Source of the DNA: a virus | Lineage: Duplodnaviria > Heunggongvirae > Uroviricota > Caudoviricetes | IMG/VR virus record: IMGVR_UViG_3300042402_007287 | DNA: 39,004 nt | Direction: 5' to 3' (one strand) | In this document: piece after piece, positions 15,515 to 39,004 of the stretch | Numbering within the stretch: the stretch's first letter is position 1 | Layout: every line of letters starts with the position of its first letter | Program-made: the position numbers and the translations under genes | The notes under the pieces: model-generated | Database searches by the model: none | What the model was told of the DNA's origin: nothing | What the model saw: only the letters and a program-made list of their open reading frames with translations

Positions 15515-15538
15515 CTAAAATAAATATTGAATTTTTGA

Positions 15539-17644: not shown

Positions 17645-17701
17645 TTAAACTAATGTATATCCTATAATTATAAGGATTAGAATTATTTTATAAATCTAAA
17701 A

Positions 17702-18358
17702 TCAACATAAACCATAATCCAAGATAATTCCTGAAGAATCAATTTGGACTGAATAGTTGTTTCCATTGAACTCCATAAGTAACCAATTACTTCCACCATT
17801 GAACGGTGAATAAAGAACAGAATTATTTTGTACTGTATAAACTTTAGCACCTACAACAGGTACTAAGTTAGCTTCGGCAATATAAGTATAATAATTTTGA
17901 ATTGTTACATGGTCGTTACAACATTCACCTGATGAAGGCCACGTTCTATCTGTACAACCCTGACCCACAGCATGTGAGGCGATGTTTGGTGTCACAGAAA
18001 TAGTAGGTGTTTGGGTGGGAGTAGATGTTAAAGTTGGAGTATTACTCGGTGATTGTGTTGGTGAAACCGTGGGTGTTTGTGTTTGAGTTAGAGTTTGAGT
18101 TGGGCTTATGGTTGGTGTTGGAGTAAAACTCGGTGTAGGTGTGGGAGTAATCGGAAATGGTAAACCTAACTCACAACCCTGAGTATCAACAATTTTTATT
18201 ATGAAATCAGAGTCACAATAAGGCACTGGAACATCAAAAACAAATGGAAAAGTCGCAACTGTTGAGACGTACACACATGAGGCACTCATTGCGTCACAAT
18301 AATAAATGTCTACGGGGGTGTTAGCAGTTAAAGATTTTATGGTTATTTGTTCACTCAT
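17702..18358 (-). CDS. Pro/Thr-linker protein with N- and C-terminal Cys-containing beta domains
   Basis: Start reassigned to MSEQ at 18358 (ATGA overlap with the upstream gene); TPTPT linker of about 60 aa. Confidence 0.7.
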
Positions 18359-18567
18359 TCTGCAGTATTGATTATTTGGCAACCTTGAGCATCGACTAAT
18401 TTTAACATATAAACAGTAAGTTCGTCGTAAGGTTTTGGTATTTCAAAAGTGAAAGGTATTGTTGATGTTTCTGTTATATAGAAACAATTTGTACCGAGTT
18501 CATCACATATGTAGACATCATATGGAGAGGTACCTGTAACCGCATCTATTGAAATAAGTTTTGACAT
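18355..18567 (-). CDS. Small beta-domain protein, paralogue of the N-terminus of 17702-18358
   Basis: Shared pattern P.D(I/V)Y.CD....C.Y.......PF.F..P.PY.......K.VD.QGC. Confidence 0.7.
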
Positions 18568-18568
18568 A

Positions 18569-23784: not shown

Positions 23785-25149
23785 TTATTTGTAATTTTCT
23801 AAGTAAAACTTCAAATCTTCAGGAGTACCGAGTCCGAACATTTTTTCTACATCATAGGTCTTTATTCTTTTTTTATCCTCAATAGCCTCATTAAAAACGG
23901 GACAAACATAAAATTCATTATTGGTTCTTATGTTTTTTGAAATCATTTGTTCTGCATATCTTACATAATCACTTCCTTTCGACCAATAGTAAATCCCAAC
24001 AGTTGCTTTGTCTGAAATAGGTTTTTTTTCTGCAACCTCGGTAACATATCCGAATTCATCACATTTAACGAACGACCATTTTGGATGGGTGGATTTGAAA
24101 GTGAGGATAGCAGCATCTAATTTAGTTTCATAAACTTTATAAAGAAACTCATTTGAGTTCCACTCTACGTATTGGTCTGAGTTTGAAATAAGAAGAGGTC
24201 GTTCATTATTTATTAAACTCTTAGCCAAAAGAGTGGTCACTGCGGCACCTTGTGTAACACCATCAACCTCAACAATTTGACAATTTGGCGTTATCAAGTT
24301 TAATAGGGTATCAAGATTATATTTTTCCCTGTGATTCCTCTGAACGATATAAATAAAATTAGCATCAATATTCAAATTTTCGACAATAACTTTAATCATG
24401 GGCTCTCCATTCACATCAATCAATGGTTTTGGGAAGGTATATCCCGCATTTTCGAATCTAGAACCAGCTCCCGCCATAGGAATTAGTACGTTCAAATTAT
24501 TATCTTTCCACTTAGGTTTTTTGTAAACTATATTTTTTTCCAAAATTGATAAAATTTTTTCGTATGTGACATCCTCGGGATTGTTGACCCTGAGTACGTG
24601 AGCTTTACTTCTATTTGCAGCCAACAAACCGTGTGGTGAATCCTCTATTATAAGTGTCTCGTCAGGTAAAAAACCCATACTACTCATAGCAGACCAATAA
24701 ATTTCGGGATGTGGTTTACCGTTTTTAACATCTTCGTTAGAAAGAATCAAATCCATGAACTCAATCAATCCAAGCTTGGATAACATGATAAGAACAGAAC
24801 GACGGATAGAATTAGAACAACATGCAATTTTAAAATTTTTTTCTCTAAGTTTTTTCATTATTTCTATCAGTCTATTGTTTGGAGAAAGTTTACTGATAGA
24901 ATTCAAAGTCAAATTCTGTTTTAGTTCCCAAATTTCTTTATAAAACTCTTCCGATAAACCCTTTTCTTTGGTGAGAATTTTTAGTTTTTCATAGGTTTTC
25001 AAACCGTCGTAAATTGATAGATGTTCCTTTTCTGAGATAATAAAATTAGAACCCCCAATTGACTCTATGGCGTTATTTAAAGTTAGAAAATGTATGTGTT
25101 TAGTTTCGACTAAAACCCCATCCAAATCAAAAATTATGAGTTTTATCAT
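23785..25149 (-). CDS. HAD phosphatase / sugar-phosphate nucleotidyltransferase fusion
   Basis: N-terminal FDLDGVLV, CCSNS, GKPHP, IEDS (HAD); C-terminal LIPMAGAGSRF...PKPLI, ISNSDQ, VAEKKP, GLGTPED (NTP transferase). Confidence 0.88.
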   Translation of the reverse strand: MIKLIIFDLDGVLVETKHIHFLTLNNAIESIGGSNFIISEKEHLSIYDGLKTYEKLKILTKEKGLSEEFYKEIWELKQNLTLNSISKLSPNNRLIEIMKKLREKNFKIACCSNSIRRSVLIMLSKLGLIEFMDLILSNEDVKNGKPHPEIYWSAMSSMGFLPDETLIIEDSPHGLLAANRSKAHVLRVNNPEDVTYEKILSILEKNIVYKKPKWKDNNLNVLIPMAGAGSRFENAGYTFPKPLIDVNGEPMIKVIVENLNIDANFIYIVQRNHREKYNLDTLLNLITPNCQIVEVDGVTQGAAVTTLLAKSLINNERPLLISNSDQYVEWNSNEFLYKVYETKLDAAILTFKSTHPKWSFVKCDEFGYVTEVAEKKPISDKATVGIYYWSKGSDYVRYAEQMISKNIRTNNEFYVCPVFNEAIEDKKRIKTYDVEKMFGLGTPEDLKFYLENYK

Positions 25150-25574
25150 TTTCTATATTCTAATGGTTTATCAGTACAGACCCCATATAATGTATCAGGG
25201 AGTATTTTATAATCAAGTTCAACAATGATACTCTCAGGGACAATTACGTTGTAATTACACCAAATAAAACCTTTACTCGTAATTGTCATTCTGTCATTTT
25301 CGTGCCAAAACCAATTTAATTCTGTTTGTTTCAAAATTCTTATTGAATCTAAATTTTTTGAATGAACCCACAAATTATCTTTCACTTCGTAAAGCCATTC
25401 TAGTGTCACAGATTCCTCAGGACTATCGTGACCCAAAAAAAAACCTTTTTCTGTATGCCAAAAATCAATCTCAACATCAAATCCTAATTCTATTGCTCTA
25501 ACCACACTTGATTTCTTGTTCTCTTCGTCCACTTTATTACCAAATAAATTTCCTCGGTGTGATATAATTTTCAT
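25146..25574 (-). CDS. Small GDPD / PLC-like phosphodiesterase-fold protein
   Basis: IISHRGN...EN...GFDVEID...LGHD...WVHSKN motifs. Confidence 0.75.
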   Translation of the reverse strand: MKIISHRGNLFGNKVDEENKKSSVVRAIELGFDVEIDFWHTEKGFFLGHDSPEESVTLEWLYEVKDNLWVHSKNLDSIRILKQTELNWFWHENDRMTITSKGFIWCNYNVIVPESIIVELDYKILPDTLYGVCTDKPLEYRK

Positions 25575-25581
25575 ATTCCTA

Positions 25582-26418
25582 TTATTTTGAGGCTAAACAA
25601 ATTCCTTCGTGGGAATGTAAAAGATACCCGTTCGATTTTAGATAATCGGTAAGAATTTCTTTTTGCTCTGGCACAAGATTATAATCTTCAAATATTATAA
25701 AATTTGTTAGAAATTTAGGGTGAAGTGATAATATTAAATTTGCATCCAATCCTTCGACATCTAAGTGAATCCAATCTAGTTTACCATCGCAATTTTTTTC
25801 AATGAAGTCGTTGATACTCATAGAATCTCTGACTGTACAATTTATCTCTTCTTTTTCCCAATTTTTAATCACAGTTTCATCCACACTATTTGTATAACCT
25901 TGACCCCCTTCATAGAATTTTACTTCACCCCCATTTGGAGTAATCAATTGTCTAAATGTTTTTATACAAGAATTATTATTGTAATTTAAGTTCAACTTGT
26001 TAAATTGTTTTTCGGACGCCTCAACTAAAAACATCTTAGCTTCTCTTCTCAAAGCAATTGGTACCCATTCACCAAATTCCCCATCATGTGTACCGATAAC
26101 CAAACCTTTTGGAAAAATACCATTAGAAATGAGTTTTTTATTATACAAAAATAAAGCCTTGTAAAAATAGTTACCATGCTCTATGACGTCCCAATTTTTT
26201 CTATACAAAATATGACCAAAAGAGTCAGAAATTTCTACGTCAAACATCTCAGTGTTTGGATAAGTTGCAAACCAAAAATCATGAACATTTGTTTCCCATT
26301 GTGTCTCTCCACTGACATGTTTTTTTATTTTTAGCCTCAAAGGTAAATTATTGTTGAACTTACTTATTTCACCAAAGTCAACTCGTATACCGTCTTTATT
26401 ATAAGTAACATTTATCAT
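25582..26418 (-). CDS. FkbM-family O-methyltransferase with an N-terminal beta domain
   Basis: GLVIGTHDG, FLVEAS, IHLDVEG motifs. Confidence 0.78.
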   Translation of the reverse strand: MINVTYNKDGIRVDFGEISKFNNNLPLRLKIKKHVSGETQWETNVHDFWFATYPNTEMFDVEISDSFGHILYRKNWDVIEHGNYFYKALFLYNKKLISNGIFPKGLVIGTHDGEFGEWVPIALRREAKMFLVEASEKQFNKLNLNYNNNSCIKTFRQLITPNGGEVKFYEGGQGYTNSVDETVIKNWEKEEINCTVRDSMSINDFIEKNCDGKLDWIHLDVEGLDANLILSLHPKFLTNFIIFEDYNLVPEQKEILTDYLKSNGYLLHSHEGICLASK

Positions 26419-26963
26419 TTTTTATGTTTTTCAATGAAATAATTTATATCGGAACTCCAAAGAATCATTCCCTCCTCTTTGATTTTGCTTTCATCCCAAG
26501 ACCACCATTCTATTTTCAGTAACTCTTCAATTTGACTTTTATCGAAGCGGTATTTTAATAATTTTGCAGGATTGCCACCCACTATGGAATATGGTTCAAC
26601 ATCTTTTGTCACCAACGCACCCGCAGCTACTATGGCACCATCCCCTATTTTCACTCCTGACATAATTGTTGATTTAGCACCAATCCAAACATCATTACCC
26701 ACAATAATATCCCCTTTACAAGATGGATGACCCATTTGCATGTGAAGAGATGCTATCTCAGGAGTAACAGGTCCCCAAAGTTGTGAGCTAGTTGTAATCC
26801 AATCAGGTCGGTGATTGGCGTGTAAGAAAAAATTACAATCTCTACCTATCGAACAATATTTACCAACTCTAACTTTATACTCATCGCTCCAAGAAATTAT
26901 ATTGACATTCCTGTCAAAATAAGTTCCTCTGTCGGCTAACCATAAATGAAGATTTTCTATCAT
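26415..26963 (-). CDS. Hexapeptide-repeat (LbH, CatB/Vat-like) O-acetyltransferase
   Basis: VGKYCSIG, H..DWITT, IIVGNDVWIG, IGDGAIVAAGALVTKDVEPYSIVGGNPAK. Confidence 0.88.
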   Translation of the reverse strand: MIENLHLWLADRGTYFDRNVNIISWSDEYKVRVGKYCSIGRDCNFFLHANHRPDWITTSSQLWGPVTPEIASLHMQMGHPSCKGDIIVGNDVWIGAKSTIMSGVKIGDGAIVAAGALVTKDVEPYSIVGGNPAKLLKYRFDKSQIEELLKIEWWSWDESKIKEEGMILWSSDINYFIEKHKK

Positions 26964-27889
26964 AATTTCTGAAGTGTGTTATGTTTAATTTTTTTTATTA
27001 TCTCTGTAATGTTTTTATTTGTATCAGCAATTTGTATACTAGTATTCTTTATTTCATTTTTCTTATATCCCAAATCAATTAAATCAAGGTTATTAATTTT
27101 ACGGGTATATTTTATATTATCTATAATAATTTTGACTTCGATTTCATCGGTTATGTCGTAAAAAAATAATTTTACATTTTCATCTTGTTCATCATTTTTT
27201 TCTATAAAAAACTTGACGGAATCAAATGGTGAAAAATTTAAAAAATCCTTATTCTCGTAATAAAATATTTCATCTTCTACCGGTATTTTTTCTATGTCAG
27301 AATTCAATTGTTTCCGATATACCTCTAACCAAGAAAAAGCATCACTGTTTTCCACACTTAAATAATTTTTCAAAGTAATCATAGAAGAAAATTTTTCTAA
27401 GTTTAACCTATCGAATATCATAAAGTGTAATCCAAAGGGCCAAATTTGATTATCTCTTTTGGATGGAAAAATTGAACATTTTCTATCGGAATTGAAAAAT
27501 TCTTTGAAGTCCTCTGTGATTTTAATATCATATATCATGTGAAAAAATTGTTCATATCCAAAGGTTAGTGCAATATCACTCAATTGTTTGACTTGATACA
27601 ATCCCGCAAAACCATAATCTGCGTATGTCACAGATAATTTGTAACTAGAATTATTATTACTTAGAATTCTCCAATAAAACATCGAACGTTCAGGCCAATC
27701 TAAAATTGGATTATCTTTTGTAATAAAAAAGTAATCACACATTTCCGTAATTTTCTTATCTATAACAAAAGGACTTATAACCAAAACATCAATACCTTGG
27801 GACTTGACTATTGATATGTTTTTTTTTAAAACATCTAACTTTTCATTTGTATCACAAAAGGAACTTATTAGTGCGATTTTTTTATTCAT
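26960..27889 (-). CDS. Hypothetical protein of the glycosylation locus (GT-like)
   Basis: 309 aa coupled by ATGA overlaps; IALISSF start and HMIYD motif; no family recognised with confidence. Confidence 0.5.
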   Translation of the reverse strand: MNKKIALISSFCDTNEKLDVLKKNISIVKSQGIDVLVISPFVIDKKITEMCDYFFITKDNPILDWPERSMFYWRILSNNNSSYKLSVTYADYGFAGLYQVKQLSDIALTFGYEQFFHMIYDIKITEDFKEFFNSDRKCSIFPSKRDNQIWPFGLHFMIFDRLNLEKFSSMITLKNYLSVENSDAFSWLEVYRKQLNSDIEKIPVEDEIFYYENKDFLNFSPFDSVKFFIEKNDEQDENVKLFFYDITDEIEVKIIIDNIKYTRKINNLDLIDLGYKKNEIKNTSIQIADTNKNITEIIKKIKHNTLQKL

Positions 27890-29538
27890 CTCATTTCATT
27901 TATAATTCCATTATCTGAATGGAACGGTTCGTTTATTTTTCTTTTTTCCAAAACTAACATACTATCATAATAGTGAATACCAAAAATATTTTTAGTTTCA
28001 TATCTTATCTCCTGTTGTTTGGAATGCCACGCATTTATATAATCAATAAAGTTTTTCGAATATTCTATAAAAGTACCCTCCTTTTTTAATCCTCCTCCGT
28101 AGAATTTGGGCCAATAGGATGTATGTAAATCTTCGCAGATGTATATGGAATCATCAGTCATATGGTCAATCATATGTTCATACGTGATAATTTGTTGACT
28201 CATTGTGTGCCCCCCATCGTCTATTATTATATCCAATTTTGGAATTTTAGTTTTTAGCGATTCTAAAAATTCTTCATCATCTTGGGAGCCTATGAATATT
28301 TCTATTTGTTCTTCTTCGTATATTTTACAATTAGTGTTTATATCTACTCCATAAATTTTTACCTTAGGTCCGAAATAATTTTTCCACATCTCAAGTGAAC
28401 CTCCGTTTTCTACACCAATTTCTAAAATACAAATTTCTTTACCTCTAAATTTAGAAAAATACCTATCGTAGACCTCTAAATAATGAAACCACTTATGAAT
28501 ATTTTTTTTCCCCTTTTTATTCAAGAAAAAATTCTCGAAATCATTTTTAGGTTGAATGTGTTTAATTTTTTCAAAAGTCTCATAATAATTTTTTTCTTTC
28601 TTTTTTGCAAAAATTAATCCTATGTCTGAATTAAAATCTTTTCCCTCCTCAAATTCCCAATCGAATTCATTTCTTTCTAATTTATCGATAAGAGATTTTA
28701 TCCTGAAGTCAGTGTTGAAGTGAAATTCAACATGTATTTTTTTTATTGTTTTAAAAAAAACGTCAGGTATAGATTCAAAAACCTCGTATTCCGTACCCTC
28801 ACAATCTATTTTCAAAAAATCTATTTTTTCAATCCCTTGTGATTTAATAAAATCATAAAAATTAACACACTGGACTTGGTAGGATTCTTTATAATCAACA
28901 ACACTGTCGTAAATAGATGAACCCAAGGTATTGTCTCCCTCGTAAAAAGTTAAAGTCTCATTTTTATCCGAAACTGCAAGATTGAAAACTTTAACAATAT
29001 CTTTTCTTGGGTAATCTTTCAACTTTTCAAAAATGTTTTTATTTGGTTCGAATCCGTAAATTTTTGAAGCTTTCTTCATAATTGCCCCTAAAGAAAAAAT
29101 ACCGTGATTGAATCCTATATCTACAACTACATCTCCTTCTTCCACATCTACAATATTTTCGTATTGTCTATCGCAGAAATGTTCTCTCAGAACATCGTTT
29201 ACACCCGCTTGTTGTCCGAGAGTATTTTGTTTTTGAACATTTGTAAGATAGTTTTCATAATCGTACTCTCTCAAATCTATATTTCCATCAAAAACAAATG
29301 GAGCAATCAATTCGTTGGTTTCTAAATCGTAAAAAAAAGCTCTCATATTTTTCCAACTACCAGGAATATATGTGAAATAATGAATGTTTGGATTTGTGTC
29401 AAGTTCCAAGTAATTACTGAACATAAAACTATTGGTGTATCCTTCATATAAATCTATCCTAACATGTAGTTTTTTATTCGAACAATTTAAATATTTTAAT
29501 TTTCTTTCTGATGCAGAATACTCGATAAACCTAATCAT
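27886..29538 (-). CDS. Double methyltransferase: FkbM domain plus class I sugar O-methyltransferase (MycE-like)
   Basis: VVVDIGFNHG, YGFEPN, LKIDCEGTE; then HKW.HY...Y, ILEIGVENGGSLEMW, GVDI, IIIDDGGH, YICED. Confidence 0.85.
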   Translation of the reverse strand: MIRFIEYSASERKLKYLNCSNKKLHVRIDLYEGYTNSFMFSNYLELDTNPNIHYFTYIPGSWKNMRAFFYDLETNELIAPFVFDGNIDLREYDYENYLTNVQKQNTLGQQAGVNDVLREHFCDRQYENIVDVEEGDVVVDIGFNHGIFSLGAIMKKASKIYGFEPNKNIFEKLKDYPRKDIVKVFNLAVSDKNETLTFYEGDNTLGSSIYDSVVDYKESYQVQCVNFYDFIKSQGIEKIDFLKIDCEGTEYEVFESIPDVFFKTIKKIHVEFHFNTDFRIKSLIDKLERNEFDWEFEEGKDFNSDIGLIFAKKKEKNYYETFEKIKHIQPKNDFENFFLNKKGKKNIHKWFHYLEVYDRYFSKFRGKEICILEIGVENGGSLEMWKNYFGPKVKIYGVDINTNCKIYEEEQIEIFIGSQDDEEFLESLKTKIPKLDIIIDDGGHTMSQQIITYEHMIDHMTDDSIYICEDLHTSYWPKFYGGGLKKEGTFIEYSKNFIDYINAWHSKQQEIRYETKNIFGIHYYDSMLVLEKRKINEPFHSDNGIINEMR

Positions 29539-31397
29539 ATTTCCAAGATTGTTTTTAGAATAATTCTATTTTTATTTTTCTCGATTATATCAATATAATA
29601 TTTTCCGTGGTGCAAATTTATGTCCGAAATAAAAAAAGTCCAATAATTAAAAATTTTTTGATTTTGTAAATTTAGAATTTCTTTTTTTTCACTATTTCTG
29701 ACAACGAAGTTGACAGTATCTTCAATTTTTTTACCTGTTAAAAAAGAGTTTCTTTGAAAGAACAATGTGTTGTTTTTAAAGTTTACCAAAAAATCATCCT
29801 CGCACAAAACAGTTTTACCGTAGTTTTCTCTTATTTTTTTGTAGAATTCAAAGTCTTTGAATCCGTGAAATATATAAATCTCATTTTCATTTTTTGGTAA
29901 TTTAACATGTTCGGAAATTAAACTTATATTGTAGCTGTAATTTTTAATTTTTTGCATATCTAAAAATGGTGATTCTTCCATATCAATTAATGGAAGTGAT
30001 TTTTTTAATTCATATTTAGATAATAATATATTAGCCGAGTCTTCGTCGTGTAATCTGAATATCCCTGGTTTTGTATTTTTGTATTTGTTGTATATTTCCA
30101 TCTGTTCTTCAAAGAACCATCTTGAATTTTTATCAAAAAGGATTACGTTGCATTTTCTTCTAGGAAATATTCTTATTGGTATATTAGTGACCTCTGACAA
30201 TATATCTAAAGTGCTTACCCATTCACGTGTAGGTAATATATCGTTAGCATAAAGTCTATCATGGACGTGGGAATTCATCAAAGGATAATTTTCGATTTCA
30301 TCGAAAAAGTTTCCTAAGTCATCGGAAACATTGGTTAAATAAACATCAGTGTCAATGTAAACAAATTTAGTATCACTTAGATAGTTTATCGCATCCGAAA
30401 GAATAATTGGTTTTGATGATAACACAGTTATATCTCTTCCATTTACGTCTAAATCACCTTTTGGTAAATCTAATCTCCTAACTATGAACTGTTCATCTAA
30501 ATTAGTAATAAGTTCAGAGGTATAGTTTATTGTATACAAAAGACATTTTCTGTTTGAATATTTTCGAATGGAATCGATAAAACCCTCGAGTAATTTTTCA
30601 TAATTTTCAGTGAAGTAGGTCACCCACATGAAGTCATCAGAAAATTTTTTGGAGTTTGTGCAAGTTATCGTATTACCAATTCGACTCAGTTTTGTGTTAT
30701 TCTTATTATAAAAATGATGTAGTAATTTTTCTTCCGAGTTTACATAAACCTTTCCTCCAAACCATTTACAATTTGGAATCAACTTTCCTTCTATAACATC
30801 AAAATTTGAACAATCATAAAGAATTTTTACTTTGGAATTTTTTTGATGAAGTTCGTTTAATTCATTTTCATCGAAAGCAATTACATCGTAGTTTATTAAA
30901 TTGTTTACGAATTCAGCAAACTTTATTTTGTAAATAGTTCTGTTTTGCTCGGTGTTTTTAATTATGGTAAGGGGTCCAGAAATTCTATCATGATAGTTTC
31001 GTTCTCCAAAAGAAATAACATCGAAAGATTCCAAATACGGGTCAACAAATTTTCTCAAGTCACCAAAAAGAGTATCAATGTCGTAATGCCCAAAAAAATC
31101 ATAACCTCTCAGATGTTCAGAAAACAAATCACCCAAAGATGATTTTAAAATACAAACATTCCTGAGATTATTAATTTTGTAGTCTATCCCAATTTTCGAC
31201 TTGATGAGTTTTTTTAAGGATTCTATCCCTACTTTAATAACTTTGTAATTTTTACTATTCAAATCAATATCTTGGTCAGTTACAAAAAGAAAATCTATAT
31301 TTAGATTTTTAGTTGTTTCATAGTGATACCAAAAATAATCAGGTATTTTTCCAATCCAAAGTTGAATAAGGATTATGTTGGGGTTTTTTATCTGCAT
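29535..31397 (-). CDS. Two-domain putative glycosyltransferase (DUF6625-like plus a GT-A-like domain)
   Basis: WIGKIPDYF...YDFFGHYDIDTLFGDL (DUF6625-like); second domain SKP...FVYIDTD...HDED. Confidence 0.7.
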   Translation of the reverse strand: MQIKNPNIILIQLWIGKIPDYFWYHYETTKNLNIDFLFVTDQDIDLNSKNYKVIKVGIESLKKLIKSKIGIDYKINNLRNVCILKSSLGDLFSEHLRGYDFFGHYDIDTLFGDLRKFVDPYLESFDVISFGERNYHDRISGPLTIIKNTEQNRTIYKIKFAEFVNNLINYDVIAFDENELNELHQKNSKVKILYDCSNFDVIEGKLIPNCKWFGGKVYVNSEEKLLHHFYNKNNTKLSRIGNTITCTNSKKFSDDFMWVTYFTENYEKLLEGFIDSIRKYSNRKCLLYTINYTSELITNLDEQFIVRRLDLPKGDLDVNGRDITVLSSKPIILSDAINYLSDTKFVYIDTDVYLTNVSDDLGNFFDEIENYPLMNSHVHDRLYANDILPTREWVSTLDILSEVTNIPIRIFPRRKCNVILFDKNSRWFFEEQMEIYNKYKNTKPGIFRLHDEDSANILLSKYELKKSLPLIDMEESPFLDMQKIKNYSYNISLISEHVKLPKNENEIYIFHGFKDFEFYKKIRENYGKTVLCEDDFLVNFKNNTLFFQRNSFLTGKKIEDTVNFVVRNSEKKEILNLQNQKIFNYWTFFISDINLHHGKYYIDIIEKNKNRIILKTILEI

Positions 31398-31449: not shown

Positions 31450-33732
31450 ATGATTAAAATATATGCACACGGTTCCTACGTTGGAAATACAGGTTATAAT
31501 CAACACACGAGGGATTTTTTTAGACATTTATCAAAACATGCCAAAATAAAGTTCCGAAATTTTACCGTTGGAAACTCTTGGAAAGGTTACAACTTAGAAC
31601 CTCACAATGAAGAACCATATTTCAACCAAACAGATAGAGAATTATTATATGAACAAGTACTTTGGGATGATGCCGCTAGAGGTAAAAGAAGTAATTATAA
31701 AATCTATCCTGATGAATCCAAAGAGTTCGAACAGGACTTGAACATAGTTTTGTGTGAAACTAATCATAATCTTTTTTATGATGAATACGAGGGTCCAAAG
31801 ATTGCATATAATGTTTGGGAGTCTACACTACAACCACAGGGTTATTTTAATAAATTATTAGAGTTTGACGAATTGTGGGTTCCTTCTGAATGGCAGAAAG
31901 ATTGTACTGTGAAACAAGGATATCCCTCAGATAAAATAAAAGTTGTCCCTGAAGGTGTAGACATCAAAACTTTTTATCCCGATAAGAATGCAAAACACCC
32001 TTTGACCGAAGGAAAATTTACATTCTTCTTAGCCGGTCGTTGGGACTACAGGAAATCGATAAAGGAAATTATCGAAACATTTATAAAAACGTTTGATAAA
32101 ACTGTAAATGTTGAATTGATAATATCAGTAGATAATCCTTTTTCCAACGATGGATTGAGCTCCACTGAAGAAAGATTGAAACATTATGAACTTGAAGATG
32201 AAAGAATAAAAATTTTACATTTTCCACCAAGAGAAGAGTACATCAAACTTCTAAAATCATGTAGTGTATTTGTTTCATGTGCGAGGTCTGAAGGTTGGAA
32301 CCTTCCTCTAATTGAATCTATGGCTTGTGGTACACCATCAATATATTCGAACTGTTCAGGTCAGTTAGAATTTGCAAAAAACAAAGGTCTTCCTGTAAAA
32401 ATATCACACGAGCTACCTGTAAGTGCAAGTACTTACAACCATTTTAACGACAATGTTGGGAATTACTATGAACCTGATTTTGAGGATTTATCGAGAGTAA
32501 TGAAATACGCCTACGAAAATTACGAATCCATTAAAAAAACTGCGTTGATTGATTCCGAAAAAATTAGAAAAGATTTCAATTGGGAAAATGTTGCTAAGAT
32601 TGGGTTAGATACAATCAAAGATTTTTTGAAAAGACATAAATCATTACCCCCCAAACCAAAGAAAAAAAATGAAATTATTGTTTCATATTTAGATGGTCCG
32701 AGAGTTGAGGTTTTGGGAGACGATAAGGAAAATTATCTTGTTGAATTTATAAATTCGGATACAGGAGAAGTTATACATTCACAAACAATAAGTAATAACA
32801 TGTGGACCGCTTGCGGAAAAAAATATTACATTCCATGGGAAATAAAGATAAATGGAAAATTATTCGATAAGTTAGACTTAGAGGGTAAAGAAGTGATGAT
32901 AACCTTGGAGTCAAGTTCTCTTGGTGACACAATAGCTTGGACACCATATGCCGTAAAATTTGCAGAAAAACATAAATGTAAAGTTATTATGGCAACCTTT
33001 CATAATGAGTTTTTCCAAAATTTAAAGACATACGAAAATATCAAATTTATTAAACCAGGTGTTTCTCATACGTGTCATGCAATATACAGGATTGGCTGGT
33101 TCAAAGAAAATAATAAATGGGAAGTTTTTGACAAATACCCAAATCAAGTAAATTTAATCCCAATACAACAGACATCCTCAGACATTTTGGGATTAGATTT
33201 TCAAGAATTGAACTTAGGTTTAGATTTCAAAAAAGGTGATTCTCCATTAGATAAAGATTATGTTGTATTTGGACCAAACGCAACTTCAGGTTGTAAAGAA
33301 TGGGACTATAATAGTTGGGTAACCTTATCAAAATTGTTGCAAGAAATAGGATATGAAGTTGTTATCATAACAAAAAACCCTTTCATGATTGAAGGTACGA
33401 CAAATATTTGGGGTGAAAGTTTGAATGTGGTTGCAAATTACTTATATCATGCAAAAGCATTCATAGGGTTAGGTTCAGGACTTTCTTGGTTGAATTGGGG
33501 TTTGGGTAAACATACTTACATGATAAATGGTTTTTCTAAACCTGGTCATGAATTCACAAGTAAAATAACACGTATTCAAAACAACGTTTGTATATTTTGT
33601 TGGAATGATGAAGTATTTGTTTTTGATGCTGGAGATTGGGATTGGTGTCCCGTCTATAAGGGAACTAAAAAACAGCACATCTGTCAAAGGTCAATAACAC
33701 CATTACAAGTTTTCCAAAGTTTAGAATTATGA
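31450..33732 (+). CDS. Fusion of a GT4 glycosyltransferase and an Aah/TibC-type (BAHT) O-heptosyltransferase
   Basis: GT4 SEGWNLPLIESMACGTP; then beta-barrel YLDGPRV...DTGEVI...KKYYIPW, SSLGDTIAWTPYAVKF, FIGLGSGLSWL and iron-finger CIFCWND...WCP...IC. Confidence 0.85.
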   Translation: MIKIYAHGSYVGNTGYNQHTRDFFRHLSKHAKIKFRNFTVGNSWKGYNLEPHNEEPYFNQTDRELLYEQVLWDDAARGKRSNYKIYPDESKEFEQDLNIVLCETNHNLFYDEYEGPKIAYNVWESTLQPQGYFNKLLEFDELWVPSEWQKDCTVKQGYPSDKIKVVPEGVDIKTFYPDKNAKHPLTEGKFTFFLAGRWDYRKSIKEIIETFIKTFDKTVNVELIISVDNPFSNDGLSSTEERLKHYELEDERIKILHFPPREEYIKLLKSCSVFVSCARSEGWNLPLIESMACGTPSIYSNCSGQLEFAKNKGLPVKISHELPVSASTYNHFNDNVGNYYEPDFEDLSRVMKYAYENYESIKKTALIDSEKIRKDFNWENVAKIGLDTIKDFLKRHKSLPPKPKKKNEIIVSYLDGPRVEVLGDDKENYLVEFINSDTGEVIHSQTISNNMWTACGKKYYIPWEIKINGKLFDKLDLEGKEVMITLESSSLGDTIAWTPYAVKFAEKHKCKVIMATFHNEFFQNLKTYENIKFIKPGVSHTCHAIYRIGWFKENNKWEVFDKYPNQVNLIPIQQTSSDILGLDFQELNLGLDFKKGDSPLDKDYVVFGPNATSGCKEWDYNSWVTLSKLLQEIGYEVVIITKNPFMIEGTTNIWGESLNVVANYLYHAKAFIGLGSGLSWLNWGLGKHTYMINGFSKPGHEFTSKITRIQNNVCIFCWNDEVFVFDAGDWDWCPVYKGTKKQHICQRSITPLQVFQSLEL

Positions 33733-34619
33733 AAACAATCTTGATTAAACTACTTTCAAACTCATTAGGAGATACAATCGCCATCATGCCATGTGTTGAT
33801 TATTTCATTGAGCGAAGTAGTGATAATGTTTTGTTACAAATAAACAAAAACTTCGAATTTTTATTTAGAAATTCTTTTCCGAAAATAAAATATTTTTCGG
33901 AGGATATGAATTTTGATAAAAAAATTGATTTGGTCTATAACCACACTAAACCATTACAAACAGGATACGCCAATCAACTCGGATTTATAGATTGGTCATA
34001 TATTAGACCAAAAGTTGATTCATTCACATCTGATAGACCAATAAAAAATAAATATGTTTCCATGAGTATACACTCAACATCACAGTTAAAATATTGGAAT
34101 CATAAAGATGGTATCTCTGTTCAACCATTATCACCAAATTGGTCCGAACTTTCAGGTATGATAAGAAAAAAGGGATATACCCCTGTAATAATTGAAAGGG
34201 ATGAAATGTTCGGACTACCTCCATTCAGAAATGGAATGCCAACAAAAGCCCAAAAAGTTTTTGGTATATCCCTTTTGGATACTATGAATTACATTCACCA
34301 CTCAGAGTTTTTTATTGGACTTTCTTCAGGACTTTCATGGTTGGCTCATGCCATGGGAAAAAAGGTTTGTATGATTTCTAATTTCACCGAAGAATCACAT
34401 GAATTTGATTTATCAACAAATGATTACGTTAGAATTACAAATAAATCTGTTTGTCATGGATGTTGGAATCAGGTCGGAAAGGGACTATATTTTGACAATG
34501 AAGACTGGTATTGGTGTCCCAAACATAAAGGTACTGAGAGACAGTTTGAATGTCACACATCAATAACACCACAAATGGTGATGGATAAAATAAATAATTG
34601 GTTAAATTATGAAAAATAA
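33729..34619 (+). CDS. Aah/TibC-type O-heptosyltransferase lacking the N-terminal barrel
   Basis: SNSLGDTIA, HST...K.W, FFIGLSSGLSWLAHAMGKKVCMISNF and iron-finger CHGCWN...FD..DW.WCPKHKGTERQFECHTSITP. Confidence 0.85.
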   Translation: MKTILIKLLSNSLGDTIAIMPCVDYFIERSSDNVLLQINKNFEFLFRNSFPKIKYFSEDMNFDKKIDLVYNHTKPLQTGYANQLGFIDWSYIRPKVDSFTSDRPIKNKYVSMSIHSTSQLKYWNHKDGISVQPLSPNWSELSGMIRKKGYTPVIIERDEMFGLPPFRNGMPTKAQKVFGISLLDTMNYIHHSEFFIGLSSGLSWLAHAMGKKVCMISNFTEESHEFDLSTNDYVRITNKSVCHGCWNQVGKGLYFDNEDWYWCPKHKGTERQFECHTSITPQMVMDKINNWLNYEK

Positions 34620-35241
34620 AACTTACGGTTTAGTTATTAGTTCATACAAATATGGTCACTTAGCATCCCATTGCATAGAATCAGTTCTATGTCAAACAAA
34701 AAAATTTGACAAAATATGGTTTGTAGACGATGGTGTAGGTGATTGTTATTTTCTTGAAAAATTATATCCTACAATACATTTTGTTTTCAGGAAAGAAAAT
34801 TATGGGGTTGTCAAAAATTTCCAAGATATGCTCCAAAAAGTAGATACTGATTTCGTAATGTTTTTAGGTGCGGATAATTGGTTGCGTGCAGATACACTAG
34901 AGCGTTTAACTTATATGAAACCTCACACCGATATTGTAACTTTTGATGTTATAGTTACAGGAACACTAAGACATGAAATAATTACTACTTACCCAAATGA
35001 AATAACTAAAACTATGGGTGATTTTTATTGGTCCAGAAAATTCAAACATCATGGGTCTATGTTATATAACACAAAACTTGCATTAGAAAGTGGTGGTTAT
35101 GCAAATAATTTTACAAGTATAAGGACAGATGAGGACCTGAATCTATGGGAAAAAATGATAAAAAGAGGTGCGACTTTAAGTCATGTGGAAGAGGGTCTCC
35201 TCTATTATCGAAGACATCAAGAAAATTTTTATAAATATTAA
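34609..35241 (+). CDS. GT2-family glycosyltransferase
   Basis: SSYKYG...CIESVL.Q, VDDG, FLGADNW, DEDLNLW, YYRRH. Confidence 0.85.
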   Translation: MKNKTYGLVISSYKYGHLASHCIESVLCQTKKFDKIWFVDDGVGDCYFLEKLYPTIHFVFRKENYGVVKNFQDMLQKVDTDFVMFLGADNWLRADTLERLTYMKPHTDIVTFDVIVTGTLRHEIITTYPNEITKTMGDFYWSRKFKHHGSMLYNTKLALESGGYANNFTSIRTDEDLNLWEKMIKRGATLSHVEEGLLYYRRHQENFYKY

Positions 35242-35978
35242 GGGGTTGCTACTCCTCTTTTAGAAACCACTATCGAAGATTTTTCATTAGCATAGATTAT
35301 TGACTCTTCAATGTCTTTTGTTTTGAAATAAGCCAATATAAAGGCAGTAGTGAATGTATCACCAGCTCCACTGACATCTATCGTTTCTTGTGGTTTGGGG
35401 CTTTTATAAATGGTACCGTCATACTTAGCACCTTTTTCCCCTAAAGTGACTATTATGTTTTTACAATTTTGTAAATCTAAATTGTTATTAGCCTCTTTTT
35501 CATTCAACTTTACAAACGTAAATGAATCGACTATTTCTCTATTTAGTTTTCTTTTGGAGTCGAGAATGGAAAGTTTGGAGAATTTCCCCAAATATTTTAA
35601 CCATTCATCATCTAAAAAACCTTTATTATAATCAGATACAATAACAATATCGAAATTTTTTATACTAGACAATCTTTCCTGTGAATGGGTCATAGGTGAA
35701 ATATATGACTCACCGTCATCCAATCTCAAAAACATGTGATTAGTTTTTCTATCAACAAATCTAGTTTTGAATACTCTTTCACTTTGATACCAATGCTCAA
35801 TACTACAATCTTGCTCAAGAGCCTTGAGGTTCTCCACAACATTACCTGACATTCCAGGATTTTGTATGGTTTGTACAGGATTCATTACAGGAACTGGAGC
35901 TTCAGGACAAAGTCTTTTACACTCTCCGTATATGAAATTATCTTCACAAAGTTCTCCAACAACAAGTATTTTTATCAT
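35238..35978 (-). CDS. rfaE1: RfaE/HldE domain I: heptose-7-phosphate kinase (PfkB family)
   Basis: ILVVGE..ED..IYG...RLCPEAPVPV, GMSGNV, SDYNKG, LDSK, VKLNE.E, DVSGAGDTF. Confidence 0.88.
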   Translation of the reverse strand: MIKILVVGELCEDNFIYGECKRLCPEAPVPVMNPVQTIQNPGMSGNVVENLKALEQDCSIEHWYQSERVFKTRFVDRKTNHMFLRLDDGESYISPMTHSQERLSSIKNFDIVIVSDYNKGFLDDEWLKYLGKFSKLSILDSKRKLNREIVDSFTFVKLNEKEANNNLDLQNCKNIIVTLGEKGAKYDGTIYKSPKPQETIDVSGAGDTFTTAFILAYFKTKDIEESIIYANEKSSIVVSKRGVATP

Positions 35979-36364
35979 TTTTTATAATAATTTAAAATTT
36001 TTGTTGAACTATAGTTTGGTATTTTTTCAAAGAAAACAAGTTTTTTTGCGTGTTCACTTCCGTACACTATTTGTTCTTTATAATCATCACCGATGACCAT
36101 AATGTCAGGTGAGAAGTTTTTTACGTTTTCGATGAGTTCTTCTCTTGAATCGAATAACACCACTTCATCAACAAATTTTATGGATTCTAGCATTTTTTTT
36201 CTATCATCTTGAGTGTTGAAGGGTCTGTCTTCCCCTTTCAATTCTTTAACTCTTTTATCTGTGTCTATTCCTACTCTTAAATAACCAAATTGAGATGCAA
36301 ATTCCAAAAGTTTTATATGACCTATGTGTAATATGTCAAATGTACCATTTACCCAAACTTTCAT
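35975..36364 (-). CDS. rfaE2: RfaE/HldE domain II: heptose-1-phosphate nucleotidyltransferase (cytidyltransferase-like)
   Basis: VNGTFDILHIGH, GIDTD..VKELKG..RP, VDEVVLFD, GDDY, YSST. Confidence 0.85.
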   Translation of the reverse strand: MKVWVNGTFDILHIGHIKLLEFASQFGYLRVGIDTDKRVKELKGEDRPFNTQDDRKKMLESIKFVDEVVLFDSREELIENVKNFSPDIMVIGDDYKEQIVYGSEHAKKLVFFEKIPNYSSTKILNYYKK

Positions 36365-36666
36365 AATTCTTCAATTCTTTTTGATTTGTCACAAATTATC
36401 AAATCATAATGGGGTTTGTGGTTCATTTTTAATTCGTGAAACTTACAACCCCACTCATTCAATTGTTTGAATGTCAGTTCACTCCAATCACGTTTTGTTT
36501 TCTGCCCTCTTGCAGTATAATAAACAATCGTGTGACCTTCATCATACAATTTATTTATTTTATCAATATGATGAGGGAATGGTTCCGCTTCGTTATAATC
36601 TTTGACTAAACTACAAATAGTCCCATCTATATCTACGTATATTATTTTTGGCTGTCCCCTTTCCAT
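36361..36666 (-). CDS. Small HAD phosphatase (EcbF/BcbF capsule-biosynthesis type)
   Basis: YVDIDGTIC, YYTARG, KPHYDLIICDK motifs. Confidence 0.8.
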   Translation of the reverse strand: MERGQPKIIYVDIDGTICSLVKDYNEAEPFPHHIDKINKLYDEGHTIVYYTARGQKTKRDWSELTFKQLNEWGCKFHELKMNHKPHYDLIICDKSKRIEEL

Positions 36667-37028
36667 ACTCTATATGAATCTGAATCAAAATGTTGAGTTG
36701 ATACTTCAAATACTTCGCCATCAGTGATAGCTTCTAATTGATGTGGTTGACCAGGTAATTGTCTAACAGTATCACCAGGTTTTAGTATTGTTTCCATAGT
36801 ATCTGCGGTTTCCACATCAATCCATCTATAAATAAACTCACCTGAATTTACATACCAAGTTTCGTCTTTAATCATATGATAATGCATAGAGAACTTTGCA
36901 CCCTTTTTGAATACTAAAACTTTACCACAATAAAGTGGGTCATTTATTATAATAATTTCATGCCCCCAACCCTTTGGTATTTTGCATTCGGGACACTCAT
37001 GAACATTTACAACTGAAGGTTTCCTCAT
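36642..37028 (-). CDS. Cupin-fold sugar isomerase/epimerase
   Basis: KGWGHE, SMHYHMIKDETWYV, PGQPHQL, FEVST cupin metal motifs. Confidence 0.82.
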   Translation of the reverse strand: MRKPSVVNVHECPECKIPKGWGHEIIIINDPLYCGKVLVFKKGAKFSMHYHMIKDETWYVNSGEFIYRWIDVETADTMETILKPGDTVRQLPGQPHQLEAITDGEVFEVSTQHFDSDSYRVWKGDSQK

Positions 37029-37097: not shown

Positions 37098-39004
37098 TTA
37101 AGGTTTCGTTGGAATGTATTCGAGTAGTGGTGGATTTACGTCTTTACGTTCAGCTTGTATGAAGAAGTAAGCGTTTATATTTCCTTTTTCTGAATCAACA
37201 TAAACTTTATTATCTTCAATTTTAACAACAAAGTGAGTGTTTGGTTCTCCGATTGATGTAAACTGAACCGTTATACTATTTGAATCAACTAACTCGGTCC
37301 AATAATCTGGTAATTCAATTACATTTGAAGTTACAACACCTCTGACATATACACCATGTTCAGGACCTTCCAACACACCGTATCTCAACCTCATTCCAGA
37401 TTTTGTTGGGTGAGGAATGTCGAATGATTTAGAAGACGCTGTAAAGTCTCCATACAAAGTGAATGTTGCTTCTGTCTGTAATCCCATTACAGCGTTTGTA
37501 CCATCAAACGTAAAGTTTTGTTCACCATTTATGACACCAGCAGTTCCTGTTGCGGTAAGAATGTAGTTGTTTGTGTTGTTATTGATTGTTGCAGTTCCTG
37601 ATGTACCTGAGCTACCGCTCGTACCAGATGAACCAGACGTTCCTGAGCTACCTGAGGTTCCTGATGAACCAGACGTTCCTGAGCTACCTGAGGTTCCTGA
37701 TGAACCAGACGTTCCTGAGCTACCGCTCGTACCTGATAAACCACTCGAACCAGATGTTCCTGAAGAACCAGATGTACCACTCGAGCCACTTGTTCCTGAT
37801 GAACCTGATGTTCCACTTGCTCCACTAACTCCACTAGTACCCGATGAACCAGAGGTTCCTGAGCTTCCGCTTGTTCCTGAAGAACCTGAGCTACCACTTG
37901 TTCCAGATGAACCAGATGTTCCACTTGAACCTGAGCTACCTGATGTTCCACTTGAACCTGAGCTACCTGATGTTCCACTTGAGCCAGAAGAGCCAGATGT
38001 TCCTGATGAACCTGATGAGCCAGATGTTCCTGATGAACCGCTCGTACCAGATGAACCAGACGTTCCTGAGCTACCTGAGCTTCCGCTTGTTCCTGAAGAA
38101 CCTGAGCTACCACTTGTTCCTGAAGAACCTGAGCTACCACTTGTTCCAGATGAACCAGATGTTCCACTTGAACCTGAGCTACCTGATGTTCCACTTGAGC
38201 CAGAAGAGCCAGATGTTCCTGATGAGCCAGATGTTCCTGAAGAACCTGATGAGCCAGATGTTCCTGATGAACCTGATGAGCCAGATGTTCCTGATGAACC
38301 GCTCGTACCAGATGAACCAGACGTTCCTGAGCTACCTGAGCTTCCGCTTGTTCCTGAAGAACCTGAGCTACCACTTGTTCCTGAAGAACCTGAGCTACCA
38401 CTTGTTCCAGATGAACCAGATGTTCCACTTGAACCTGAGCTACCTGATGTTCCACTTGAGCCAGAAGAGCCAGATGTTCCTGATGAGCCAGATGTTCCTG
38501 AAGAACCTGATGAGCCAGATGTTCCTGATGAACCTGATGAGCCAGATGTTCCTGATGAACCGCTCGTACCAGATGAACCAGACGTTCCTGAGCTACCTGA
38601 GCTTCCGCTTGTTCCTGAAGAACCTGAGCTTCCGCTTGTTCCTGATGAACCGCTCGTACCAGATGAACCAGACGTTCCTGAGCTACCTGAGGTTCCTGAT
38701 GAACCTGATGAGCCAGATGTTCCTGATGAACCTGAGCTACCACTTGTTCCTGAAGAACCTGAGCTACCTGATGTTCCTGATGAACCTGAGCTACCGCTCG
38801 TACCAGATGAACCAGATGTTCCACTTGAACCTGAGCTTCCGCTTGTACCTGAAGAACCAGATGTACCACTTGAGCCACTTGTTCCTGATGAACCTGAGCT
38901 ACCGCTCGTACCAGATGAACCAGATGTTCCACTTGAACCTGAGCTTCCGCTTGTACCTGAAGAACCAGATGTACCACTTGAGCCACTTGTTCCTGATGAA
39001 CCTG
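37098..39004 (-). CDS. Tail-fibre-like protein with a collagen-like (Gly-X-Ser)n region and a conserved C-terminal domain; 5' end outside window
   Basis: The frame of track ORF 37098-37487 stays open to 39002: (GSS/GTS)n, then GTATINNNTNNYILTATGTAGVINGEQNFTFDGTNAV, then M...KSFDIPHP...LRYGVLEGPEHGVYVRG...IELPDYW. At least 634 aa. Confidence 0.88.
   Translation of the reverse strand, partial: GSSGTSGSSGTSGSSGTSGSSGSSGTSGSSGTSGSSGSSGTSGSSGTSGSSGTSGSSGSSGTSGSSGTSGSSGSSGTSGSSGSSGTSGSSGSSGTSGSSGSSGTSGSSGTSGSSGTSGSSGTSGSSGSSGTSGSSGSSGTSGSSGTSGSSGTSGSSGSSGTSGSSGSSGTSGSSGTSGSSGSSGTSGSSGSSGTSGSSGTSGSSGSSGTSGSSGSSGTSGSSGSSGTSGSSGTSGSSGTSGSSGSSGTSGSSGSSGTSGSSGTSGSSGSSGTSGSSGSSGTSGSSGTSGSSGSSGTSGSSGSSGTSGSSGSSGTSGSSGTSGSSGTSGSSGSSGTSGSSGSSGTSGSSGSSGTSGSSGSSGTSGSSGTSGSSGSSGTSGSSGTSGSSGTSGVSGASGTSGSSGTSGSSGTSGSSGTSGSSGLSGTSGSSGTSGSSGTSGSSGTSGSSGTSGSSGTSGSSGTSGSSGTSGTATINNNTNNYILTATGTAGVINGEQNFTFDGTNAVMGLQTEATFTLYGDFTASSKSFDIPHPTKSGMRLRYGVLEGPEHGVYVRGVVTSNVIELPDYWTELVDSNSITVQFTSIGEPNTHFVVKIEDNKVYVDSEKGNINAYFFIQAERKDVNPPLLEYIPTKP
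37599..39002 (-). repeat. About 156 Gly-X-Ser triplets with nested 261-nt and 108-nt direct repeats
   Basis: 1404 nt in register. Identical sequence recurs at 38041, 38302 and 38563 (261-nt period); a 108-nt period is present near the window end. Confidence 0.9.

Follow-up and report, generated by a model that had tools for sequence, protein, structure and literature searches.

How could a phage operon yield an activated heptose when it lacks the enzyme with which heptose synthesis is expected to begin? This question is raised by a four-gene operon in a 39,004-nucleotide stretch of DNA from a virus of the class Caudoviricetes (IMG/VR record IMGVR_UViG_3300042402_007287), the whole of which is hereafter called the window. 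Heptose nucleotides build the lipopolysaccharide core and decorate adhesins, and ADP-heptose triggers the innate-immune sensor ALPK1. To our knowledge, every route to these compounds is taken to begin with the phosphoheptose isomerase GmhA. The bacterial pathway to ADP-L-glycero-beta-D-manno-heptose relies on GmhA, HldE (or HldA and HldC), GmhB and HldD. The operon has the four-step logic in common with this pathway, and its kinase and nucleotidyltransferase (NT) are homologous to HldA and HldC, i.e. to the two halves of a split RfaE. It differs in that a 128-residue metal cupin stands in the place of GmhA, which has the SIS fold, and a 101-residue capless HAD of the AfhF/1xpj type in the place of GmhB, which belongs to HAD-IIIA. 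Furthermore, HldD has no counterpart in the window, and HldA exceeds the kinase in length by some 70 residues. Taken together, the evidence presented below makes it probable that this operon directs the synthesis of a nucleoside diphosphate (NDP)-heptose from sedoheptulose-7-phosphate (S7P), with the cupin and the HAD acting as non-homologous replacements for GmhA and GmhB.

In the proposed route, the His-His-Glu-His metal site of the cupin would isomerise the ketose S7P to the aldose heptose-7-phosphate. This step would be the seven-carbon counterpart of the conversion of fructose-6-phosphate to mannose-6-phosphate by small cupin phosphomannose isomerases (PMIs). The HldA-like PfkB kinase would then phosphorylate the anomeric O1, the HAD would take off the 7-phosphate and the HldC-like transferase would add the nucleotide. 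Most likely, the resulting donor would feed two neighbouring heptosyltransferases of the TibC/Aah type, leading to O-heptosylation of serines on the adjacent Gly-X-Ser fibre. The substrates and products of all steps, the nucleotide and the acceptor are predictions drawn from gene families and gene context.

The four genes lie on the minus strand and all start with ATG. They encode, in this order, the single-domain cupin (36642..37028, 128 residues), which would produce D-glycero-D-manno-heptose-7-phosphate as a GmhA analogue, the HAD (36361..36666, 101 residues), a putative heptose-1,7-bisphosphate 7-phosphatase and GmhB analogue, the NT (35975..36364, 129 residues), a putative heptose-1-phosphate nucleotidyltransferase, and the shortened PfkB kinase (35238..35978, 246 residues), a putative heptose-7-phosphate 1-kinase. 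The overlaps between cupin and HAD, HAD and NT, and NT and kinase are of 25, 4 and 4 nt, respectively. An earlier sequence-only reading of the window had described an overlapping four-gene operon at 35238-37028; the open reading frames (ORFs) coincide exactly with it, and Pfam, NCBIfam and PHROGs agree with the family labels that it gave. Its statement that the window holds neither gmhA nor hldD also stands: a six-frame scan of the window returned no GmhA-like, HldD-like or other short-chain dehydrogenase/reductase (SDR)-like sequence. With no SDR encoded in the window, the cupin needs no such partner. The overlapping genes and their organisation as an operon agree with a large phage of prokaryotic hosts as the source of this DNA. 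Megablast gave no match for this DNA among 50,697 phage records. The arrangement of the operon is not due to chance: cyanophages and the majority of 80 related viral loci also have these genes linked (see below).

The kinase and the NT provide a link to heptose. The kinase is a member of the PfkB family (57.8 bits for a cutoff of 25.8). Its top NCBIfam model is rfaE_dom_I (TIGR02198), with 124.9 bits for an equivalog cutoff of 345, and ribokinase comes next at 48.4 bits. Its best solved relative is HldA from Burkholderia (4e84, 2.4e-11), a match that takes in the GAGDT motif and, near the N-terminus, the segment PEAPVPV. Hence, by sequence similarity, we regard it as a divergent and shortened relative of HldA. 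The NT belongs to the cytidylyltransferase-like family (CTP_transf_like, 66.8 bits for a cutoff of 21), contains the HxGH motif as HIGH and matches phrog_7878 at 4.8e-39. Its top NCBIfam model is rfaE_dom_II (TIGR02199), with 97.7 bits for an equivalog cutoff of 181.5, and the TagD model reaches 79.5 bits. Its neighbours in the PDB are ECT, TagD and HldC (5x9q). Among these, HldC is no nearer to the NT than TagD and ECT are. Its sequence settles neither the substrate nor the nucleotide, the latter as had been anticipated. The C-terminus of the NT (NYSST) is devoid of the Arg of the STTR5 motif, which Tang et al. linked to CTP/UTP promiscuity (PMC11573728); viral heptose nucleotidyltransferases are already known from the same work. 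ADP is our best guess for the donor nucleotide, because TibC-type and GT9 enzymes use ADP-heptose.

The HAD has intact motifs I to IV, residues D12, D14, T51, K84, D88 and D93 being conserved. It had been described as a small HAD without GmhB features, and it is indeed not a member of the GmhB/HAD-IIIA group: it scores 17.7 bits with PRK08942 (cutoff 178) and 27.7 bits with TIGR01662 (cutoff 44.6). GmhB from E. coli (2gmw) is only at rank 7 in the Foldseek search, with a TMq of 0.53, and GmhB chains have 179-185 residues versus 101 for the HAD. In contrast, the label "EcbF-type" that it had also received is poorly founded, since the score with the EcbF/BcbF capsule phosphatase model TIGR01689 is 17.8 bits for a cutoff of 162, i.e. 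a distant resemblance. Its nearest characterised relative, and its closest solved one, is AfhF of E. coli phage HY126 (9iqw; phmmer 8.7e-11, top Foldseek match, 36% identity). By homology and motifs, the protein groups with the miniature HAD sugar-bisphosphate phosphatases of the AfhF/1xpj type, and heptose-1,7-bisphosphate is its putative substrate.

According to PMC13326640, which cites He et al. 2026, AfhF is a phosphatase of the UDP-arabinofuranose pathway of phage HY126 that depends on Mg and turns arabinose-1,5-bisphosphate into arabinose-1-phosphate. As proposed for the HAD, it acts on a sugar 1,omega-bisphosphate by taking off the non-anomeric phosphate, within a phage pathway made of an isomerase, a kinase, a phosphatase and a transferase; it differs in acting on a pentose and in serving DNA hypermodification. 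The reaction of AfhF is the pentose counterpart of the GmhB step, and the replacement of GmhB by this HAD is well supported by this analogy. In this same text, AfhF is partnered by an isomerase with the SIS fold, a kinase resembling APH and a transferase resembling MurU, and the genes of the window are homologous to none of these. As the isomerase, the kinase and the transferase come from other families, the operon is not an Afh pathway, and we rejected NDP-arabinose as its product.

The score of the cupin with Cupin_2 is 34.3 bits (cutoff 27.2) and both cupin motifs are present (G-x5-HxH-x4-E-x6-G and G-x6-PG-x2-H). The cupin metal ligands H49, H51, E56 and H96 do not vary among 28 sequences from phages and bacteria; nor do K19, K36 and K54 across these members, and R120 is nearly invariant. 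On these sequence grounds, it is a member of the metal-dependent cupin superfamily. As a cupin beta-barrel and not an SIS fold, it does not belong to the GmhA family (TIGR00441). Cupins include aldose-ketose isomerases, such as the small PMIs that turn fructose-6-phosphate into mannose-6-phosphate. A profile search of the PDB with the cupin gave weak generic cupin matches only. The AF2 model (pLDDT 92.9) has several structural neighbours among such isomerases, namely the Thermococcus PMIs (7zvm, 7zvy) and D-lyxose/D-mannose isomerases (2y0o, 7nzo-q), with Z scores of 14.3-15.2. Like the cupin of the window, these enzymes are single barrels of comparable size whose metal is bound by His/His/Glu/His, and they act on manno-configured substrates, as we propose for the cupin. 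They differ from it by their sequences (19-24% identity) and by the seven-carbon sugar phosphate that would be its substrate. Moreover, the cupin itself scores 19.1 bits with Lyx_isomer (PF07385; cutoff 20.8) and has no match with PF01050 at E<=0.01, and relatives of it do pass these cutoffs: P0311 and P0256 for PF01050 (24.9 and 24.8 bits for 23.6) and P0311 for Lyx_isomer (27.2 bits for 20.8). Besides generic cupin models, these aldose-ketose isomerase families are the only ones for which members of the cupin family exceed Pfam cutoffs.

The genes travel together in other viruses. Among the 50,697 phage records, tblastn detected the kinase in 37 and the cupin in 36, two sets made up for the most part of the same cyanomyoviruses. 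Their cluster T4-GC 304-308 (PSSM2_309-313 in P-SSM2) groups homologs of the NT, the kinase, the mini-HAD and the cupin, as does the window. The order is NT, kinase, mini-HAD, cupin in P-SSM2, S-SSM7 and S-CAM1 (T4-GC 304-307), whereas it is cupin, HAD, NT, kinase in the window. The identity of the cupin is 45.5% with the copy of P-SSM2 and up to 51% with other cyanophage copies. The cyanophages add a carbamoyltransferase and an HldD-like SDR, the latter located after the cassette in P-SSM2 (TIGR02197, 209.9 bits), whereas the window has instead TibC-type transferases and a Gly-X-Ser fibre. If the cupin is an isomerase, P-SSM2 would thus have five genes for the five canonical steps. Cyanophage heptose genes appear in the literature by database label only, and some of these labels look wrong. 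In RefSeq and PHROGs, "phosphoheptose isomerase" is given to the mini-HAD and "cysteine dioxygenase" to the cupin (L001:5652-6333, PSSM2_311, PSSM2_312; also L002 and L003). The fold of the mini-HAD contradicts the first label, and the second reflects no more than a similarity of fold.

The cupin is also found in large uncultured phages by the hundreds, with 437 relatives detected among the viral contigs of IMG/VR; many of these contigs are 200-335 kb long, and four are rated 95-100% complete. An unbiased clustering of the ORFs located at most 6 kb from the cupin in 80 related loci (L018-L097) retrieved the NT from 62 loci and the kinase from 60, and 41 loci contained an SDR. The SDR representative is Fcl-like (similar to GDP-fucose synthase) and not HldD-like, and some loci have two SDRs (e.g. 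L056:5871-6749). Some phages with an SDR may therefore make 6-deoxy or epimerised heptoses.

Furthermore, the cupin is found fused to its proposed partners. HAD-cupin fusions of about 229 residues account for 101 of the 120 best longer relatives of the cupin. An exhaustive profile search gave 3,020 family representatives at E<=1e-10, and among the 148 newly returned sequences of its top 150 we found four HAD-cupin, three NT-cupin, one cupin-NT and one HldE-type kinase-cupin fusions. In the last one (P0310), the kinase part reaches 134.9 bits with PfkB and was confirmed by Pfam; this fusion suggests that kinase and cupin catalyse adjacent steps. Since it is fused to each of the three other enzymes, the cupin is tied to the heptose pathway. 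Two relatives of the cupin (P0121 and P0122) have it fused to an FkbM-family methyltransferase domain like that encoded at 27886-29538 of the window, which hints at heptose methylation coupled to the pathway.

GmhA was not detected at E<=0.01 in the four 95-100% complete jumbo-phage relatives, nor in the three complete cyanophage genomes (P-SSM2, S-SSM7 and S-CAM1). Of the 50,697 phage records, 11 have a SIS-type GmhA versus 36 for the cupin. Two viruses were set aside. The Caulobacter phage Cr30, which at first seemed to have GmhA instead of the cupin, is a weak control, as its kinase is not of PfkB type (no phmmer match) and probably belongs to a GDP-heptose route; the megaphage LR756504 has GmhA without linked kinase or NT. 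Scans for viral loci with one GmhA or one TibC-like sequence as a query returned no loci, an alignment query being needed.

Bacteria, which have no host that could make up for a missing step, also bear on the relationship between the cupin and GmhA. In the family of G008 (Binataceae), for which 121 genomes were sampled and matches retained at E<=1e-10 for GmhA, 114 genomes have the cupin and 110 have HldE, and 29 have any GmhA-like match, none of these exceeding the cutoff. Of the 121, 78 are positive for HldE and the cupin and negative for GmhA. Omitting six genomes flagged as unpublished (G026, G049, G051, G066, G079 and G093) changes these counts to 108, 104, 28 and 73 of 115, respectively, and leaves the conclusion the same. 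In one locus (L009), the cupin gene lies among genes for two GT9 heptosyltransferases, one GT4 and one fused HldE. Weak SIS matches in long ORFs of Binataceae were rejected as GmhA, as they correspond to KpsF/GutQ-type domains fused to a ribokinase-like kinase. Such a fusion of ribokinase-like PfkB and KpsF/GutQ-type SIS domains, 604 residues long and without CBS domains (L100:262-2076), is recurrent in Binataceae (G005, G006 and G008).

The complementarity is strict in a class of Planctomycetes (that of G128; 151 genomes sampled, GmhA called at E<=1e-20). In this sample, 140 genomes have GmhA and seven have the cupin, and all seven cupin carriers are among the 11 genomes negative for GmhA. 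The cupin is thus absent from the 140 GmhA carriers, and four genomes have neither (Fisher p = 1.1e-9, a value that overstates independence because the seven carriers may be one clade). The mutual exclusion of cupin and GmhA, which the sequence-only reading had put forward as a check, was therefore found in one bacterial class. All seven carriers keep HldE (335-369 bits, five above the equivalog cutoff) and all seven have a ManA-like type I PMI, so the cupin is not needed as a PMI in them. The four genomes devoid of both GmhA and cupin are G160, G184, G198 and G211; HldE reaches 351-366 bits in the three that were checked (all but G211). These four may have gaps in their assemblies, or else they may use an isomerase of a third type.

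Several observations weigh against the proposed role of the cupin and its partners. The kinase and the NT stay well under the RfaE equivalog cutoffs, and the NT is about as close to glycerol-3-phosphate and ethanolamine-phosphate cytidylyltransferases. The best neighbours of the cupin model in Foldseek and VIA-align are tied at Z 14-15.6 and include the cupin domain of CapF (a nucleotide-sugar C3-epimerase), KdgF and dioxygenases together with small PMIs and D-lyxose/mannose isomerases; the predicted fold permits the isomerase proposal and does not decide it. The mini-HAD is less constant than the other genes, being found by phmmer in 22 of 97 loci and in one of the four complete relatives. 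In Binataceae, recognisable type I and type II PMIs are present in only one and two of the 121 genomes, respectively, and one cupin gene adjoins that of a GDP-mannose 4,6-dehydratase (Gmd; L013:8400-9446). Because of these missing PMIs and of this neighbour, Binataceae alone cannot separate a missing GmhA from a missing PMI; either the cupin is bifunctional there or another type of PMI is used. Finally, cupin and GmhA are not always exclusive, since one Bacteriovoracaceae genome has the full cassette together with a near-cutoff GmhA (207.7 bits).

These observations leave room for other explanations. The cassette could make NDP-heptose with a cupin that tailors the sugar after its activation, as a CapF- or RmlC-style epimerase or as a ketoisomerase acting on an NDP-4-keto-heptose, the heptose-7-phosphate coming from the GmhA of the host. 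No structural neighbour of the cupin ranks above the cupin domain of CapF (Z 15.6), which also gives a weak profile match, and the SDR that accompanies the cupin in 41 of the 80 viral loci is of a 3,5-epimerase/4-reductase type, as judged from its Fcl-like representative. In addition, metagenome-assembled genomes of Bacteroidota that contain probable mis-binned phage contigs have GmhA; hosts may thus not lack this enzyme and may supply heptose-7-phosphate, a caveat also for the reading of the cupin as an isomerase. However, no SDR is found near the cupin in the window and in 39 of the 80 viral loci, and the cupin is fused to the kinase, the NT or the HAD, not to an SDR, in the forms seen. The named families reached by its relatives are sugar isomerases, not RmlC or FdtA. 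Moreover, tailoring after activation leaves unexplained the bacteria that have HldE and the cupin without GmhA, as well as the complementarity of cupin and GmhA. We therefore consider this explanation unlikely.

The operon could also activate another sugar phosphate by the same logic, either fructose-6-phosphate, through mannose-6-phosphate to ADP-beta-mannose with the cupin as a PMI, or a pentose as in the Afh pathway. In the annotation of JGI, the cupin family goes by the name "mannose-6-phosphate isomerase-like", it has marginal matches with PF01050, and small archaeal cupin PMIs are close structural neighbours. The lack of recognisable PMIs in Binataceae, the cupin located beside Gmd, the arabinose-1,5-bisphosphate used by the nearest characterised homolog of the HAD and the scores of the kinase and the NT under the RfaE cutoffs would also suit such a route. 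Yet the top family and the top solved relative of the kinase are heptose-7-phosphate kinases, and the Afh isomerase, kinase and transferase described in PMC13326640 are not homologous to the genes of the window. The context is also specific to heptose: TibC/Aah-type transferases occur in the window and in the four complete relatives, the cupin of bacteria has GT9 heptosyltransferases and HldE for neighbours, and cyanophages encode an epimerase similar to HldD. In addition, the seven Planctomycetes-class carriers keep a ManA-like PMI and yet are without GmhA. There is, in our opinion, little chance that the product is a sugar other than heptose. Lastly, a cysteine-dioxygenase-like or other oxygenase that would be incidental in the operon and unrelated to sugar activation is very improbable: PHROG (phrog_7851, matched at 3e-39) and RefSeq do use this label and dioxygenases and decarboxylases are among the fold neighbours of the cupin, but the label rests on weak fold-level similarity, and neither the linkage in about 60 of the 80 loci, nor the fusions to three pathway enzymes, nor the complementarity with GmhA would be expected from such an enzyme.

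Hence, the reading of the cupin and the small HAD as replacements for GmhA and GmhB, already advanced from the sequence alone, gains comparative support from the linkage, the fusions, the phage genomes devoid of GmhA, the complementarity between cupin and GmhA and the homology with AfhF. We found no published description of a cupin isomerase or of this mini-HAD in heptose synthesis, nor of the pairing of a collagen-like fibre with a heptosyltransferase.

The genes that flank the operon point to a use for the donor. On the plus strand, a 760-residue protein (31450..33732) combines a GT4 domain (Glycos_transf_1, 59.4 bits) with a TibC/Aah-type O-heptosyltransferase (TIGR04414, 215.4 bits for a cutoff of 200). 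Its four-cysteine iron-finger, C-x2-C-x15-C-x11-C, has the spacing of that of TibC (Cys339/342/358/370; PMC4358343). By its score and its iron-finger, it is a member of the BAHT family (TibC/Aah, TIGR04414). It is followed on the same strand by a second TibC/Aah-like protein (33729..34619, 296 residues) that scores 188 bits, just under this cutoff of 200, over model positions 83-372; this paralogue has an iron-finger of the form C-x2-C-x17-C-x11-C and does not have the N-terminal 80 residues or so of the family model, i.e. the N-terminal barrel. A GT2 glycosyltransferase gene (34609..35241, plus strand, 210 residues; Glycos_transf_2, 50.3 bits) comes next and is convergent with the kinase gene, which it overlaps by 4 nt. 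On the other side, directly upstream of the cupin gene and on the same minus strand, a collagen-like and proline-free fibre gene (37098..39004) runs off the end of the window and encodes at least 634 residues. It contains 157 Gly-X-Y triplets, including 90 GSS and 63 GTS, with Ser at position Y in 156 of them.

The association of such fibres with TibC-type enzymes recurs in other viruses (loci including L107, L109, L081 and L087). TibC-type enzymes above the cutoff are encoded by the four complete relatives and lie beside Gly-X-Ser ORFs in two of them. In 80 TibC-centred viral loci found with an alignment query (L112-L191), a Gly-X-Ser ORF was counted within 8 kb of the TibC-like gene in 38 loci, or in 30 of 51 clusters after near-duplicates were collapsed. 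As a control, only four of 78 cupin-centred loci without TibC have a Gly-X-Ser ORF (p = 1e-11 versus 30 of 51). The fibre gene is usually immediately downstream of the TibC-like gene and convergent with it, and some fibres exceed 2,500 residues. Because of this association, the adjacent fibre is the likely acceptor of heptose, and the TibC-type enzymes are the likely consumers of the donor. In the known pairs TibC-TibA and Aah-AIDA-I, enzymes of this family use ADP-heptose to O-glycosylate serines of a repetitive protein, and the 760-residue protein retains the iron-finger of the family. It differs from them in being phage-encoded, fused to a GT4 and accompanied by its donor pathway, and its candidate acceptor is a collagen-like Gly-X-Ser fibre instead of a beta-helical autotransporter.

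Two other parts of the window deserve mention. A block of seven overlapping genes on the minus strand (23785-31397) encodes probable glycan-tailoring enzymes and may be a second sugar-nucleotide route. It includes a 454-residue beta-PGM-like HAD fused to NTP_transferase, a hexapeptide acyltransferase, a DUF6625 protein, two FkbM-type methyltransferase proteins (one with three methyltransferase-like domains) and two ORFs without family. Further along, three very large ORFs of 748, 701 and 1,639 residues occupy positions 13268-23488 of the minus strand, in a stretch where GC content (0.36-0.41) and a positive GC skew are above those of the rest of the window. One of these ORFs has SprB repeats and a weak match with a virion-structural PHROG; the 1,639-residue protein has no Pfam family.

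A wider picture, which we put forward tentatively, is that of a complete system for virion glycosylation, encoded by the window and independent of the host. The cupin and the mini-HAD would complete the route to NDP-heptose, the TibC-type enzymes would O-heptosylate the Ser at every Y position of the fibre, and the GT2, GT4, methyltransferase and acetyltransferase would elaborate the glycan. Such glycosylation may let the proline-free triple helix fold, or it may shield the fibre. In this same picture, the cupin would be a widespread second family of S7P isomerases, found in phages, Binataceae and some Planctomycetes.

If the proposed role of the cupin is true, entire clades and numerous viruses would be overlooked by genome surveys that use GmhA to score heptose synthesis, and inhibitors directed against GmhA would leave some heptose routes uncovered. 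The databases would also have the wrong label, "cysteine dioxygenase" or "phosphoheptose isomerase", on genes of phages in the hundreds. Moreover, large aquatic phages would carry a whole donor pathway, needing only a central metabolite from their host, and the TibC-type enzymes and Gly-X-Ser fibres linked to this pathway would give it a concrete and testable purpose.

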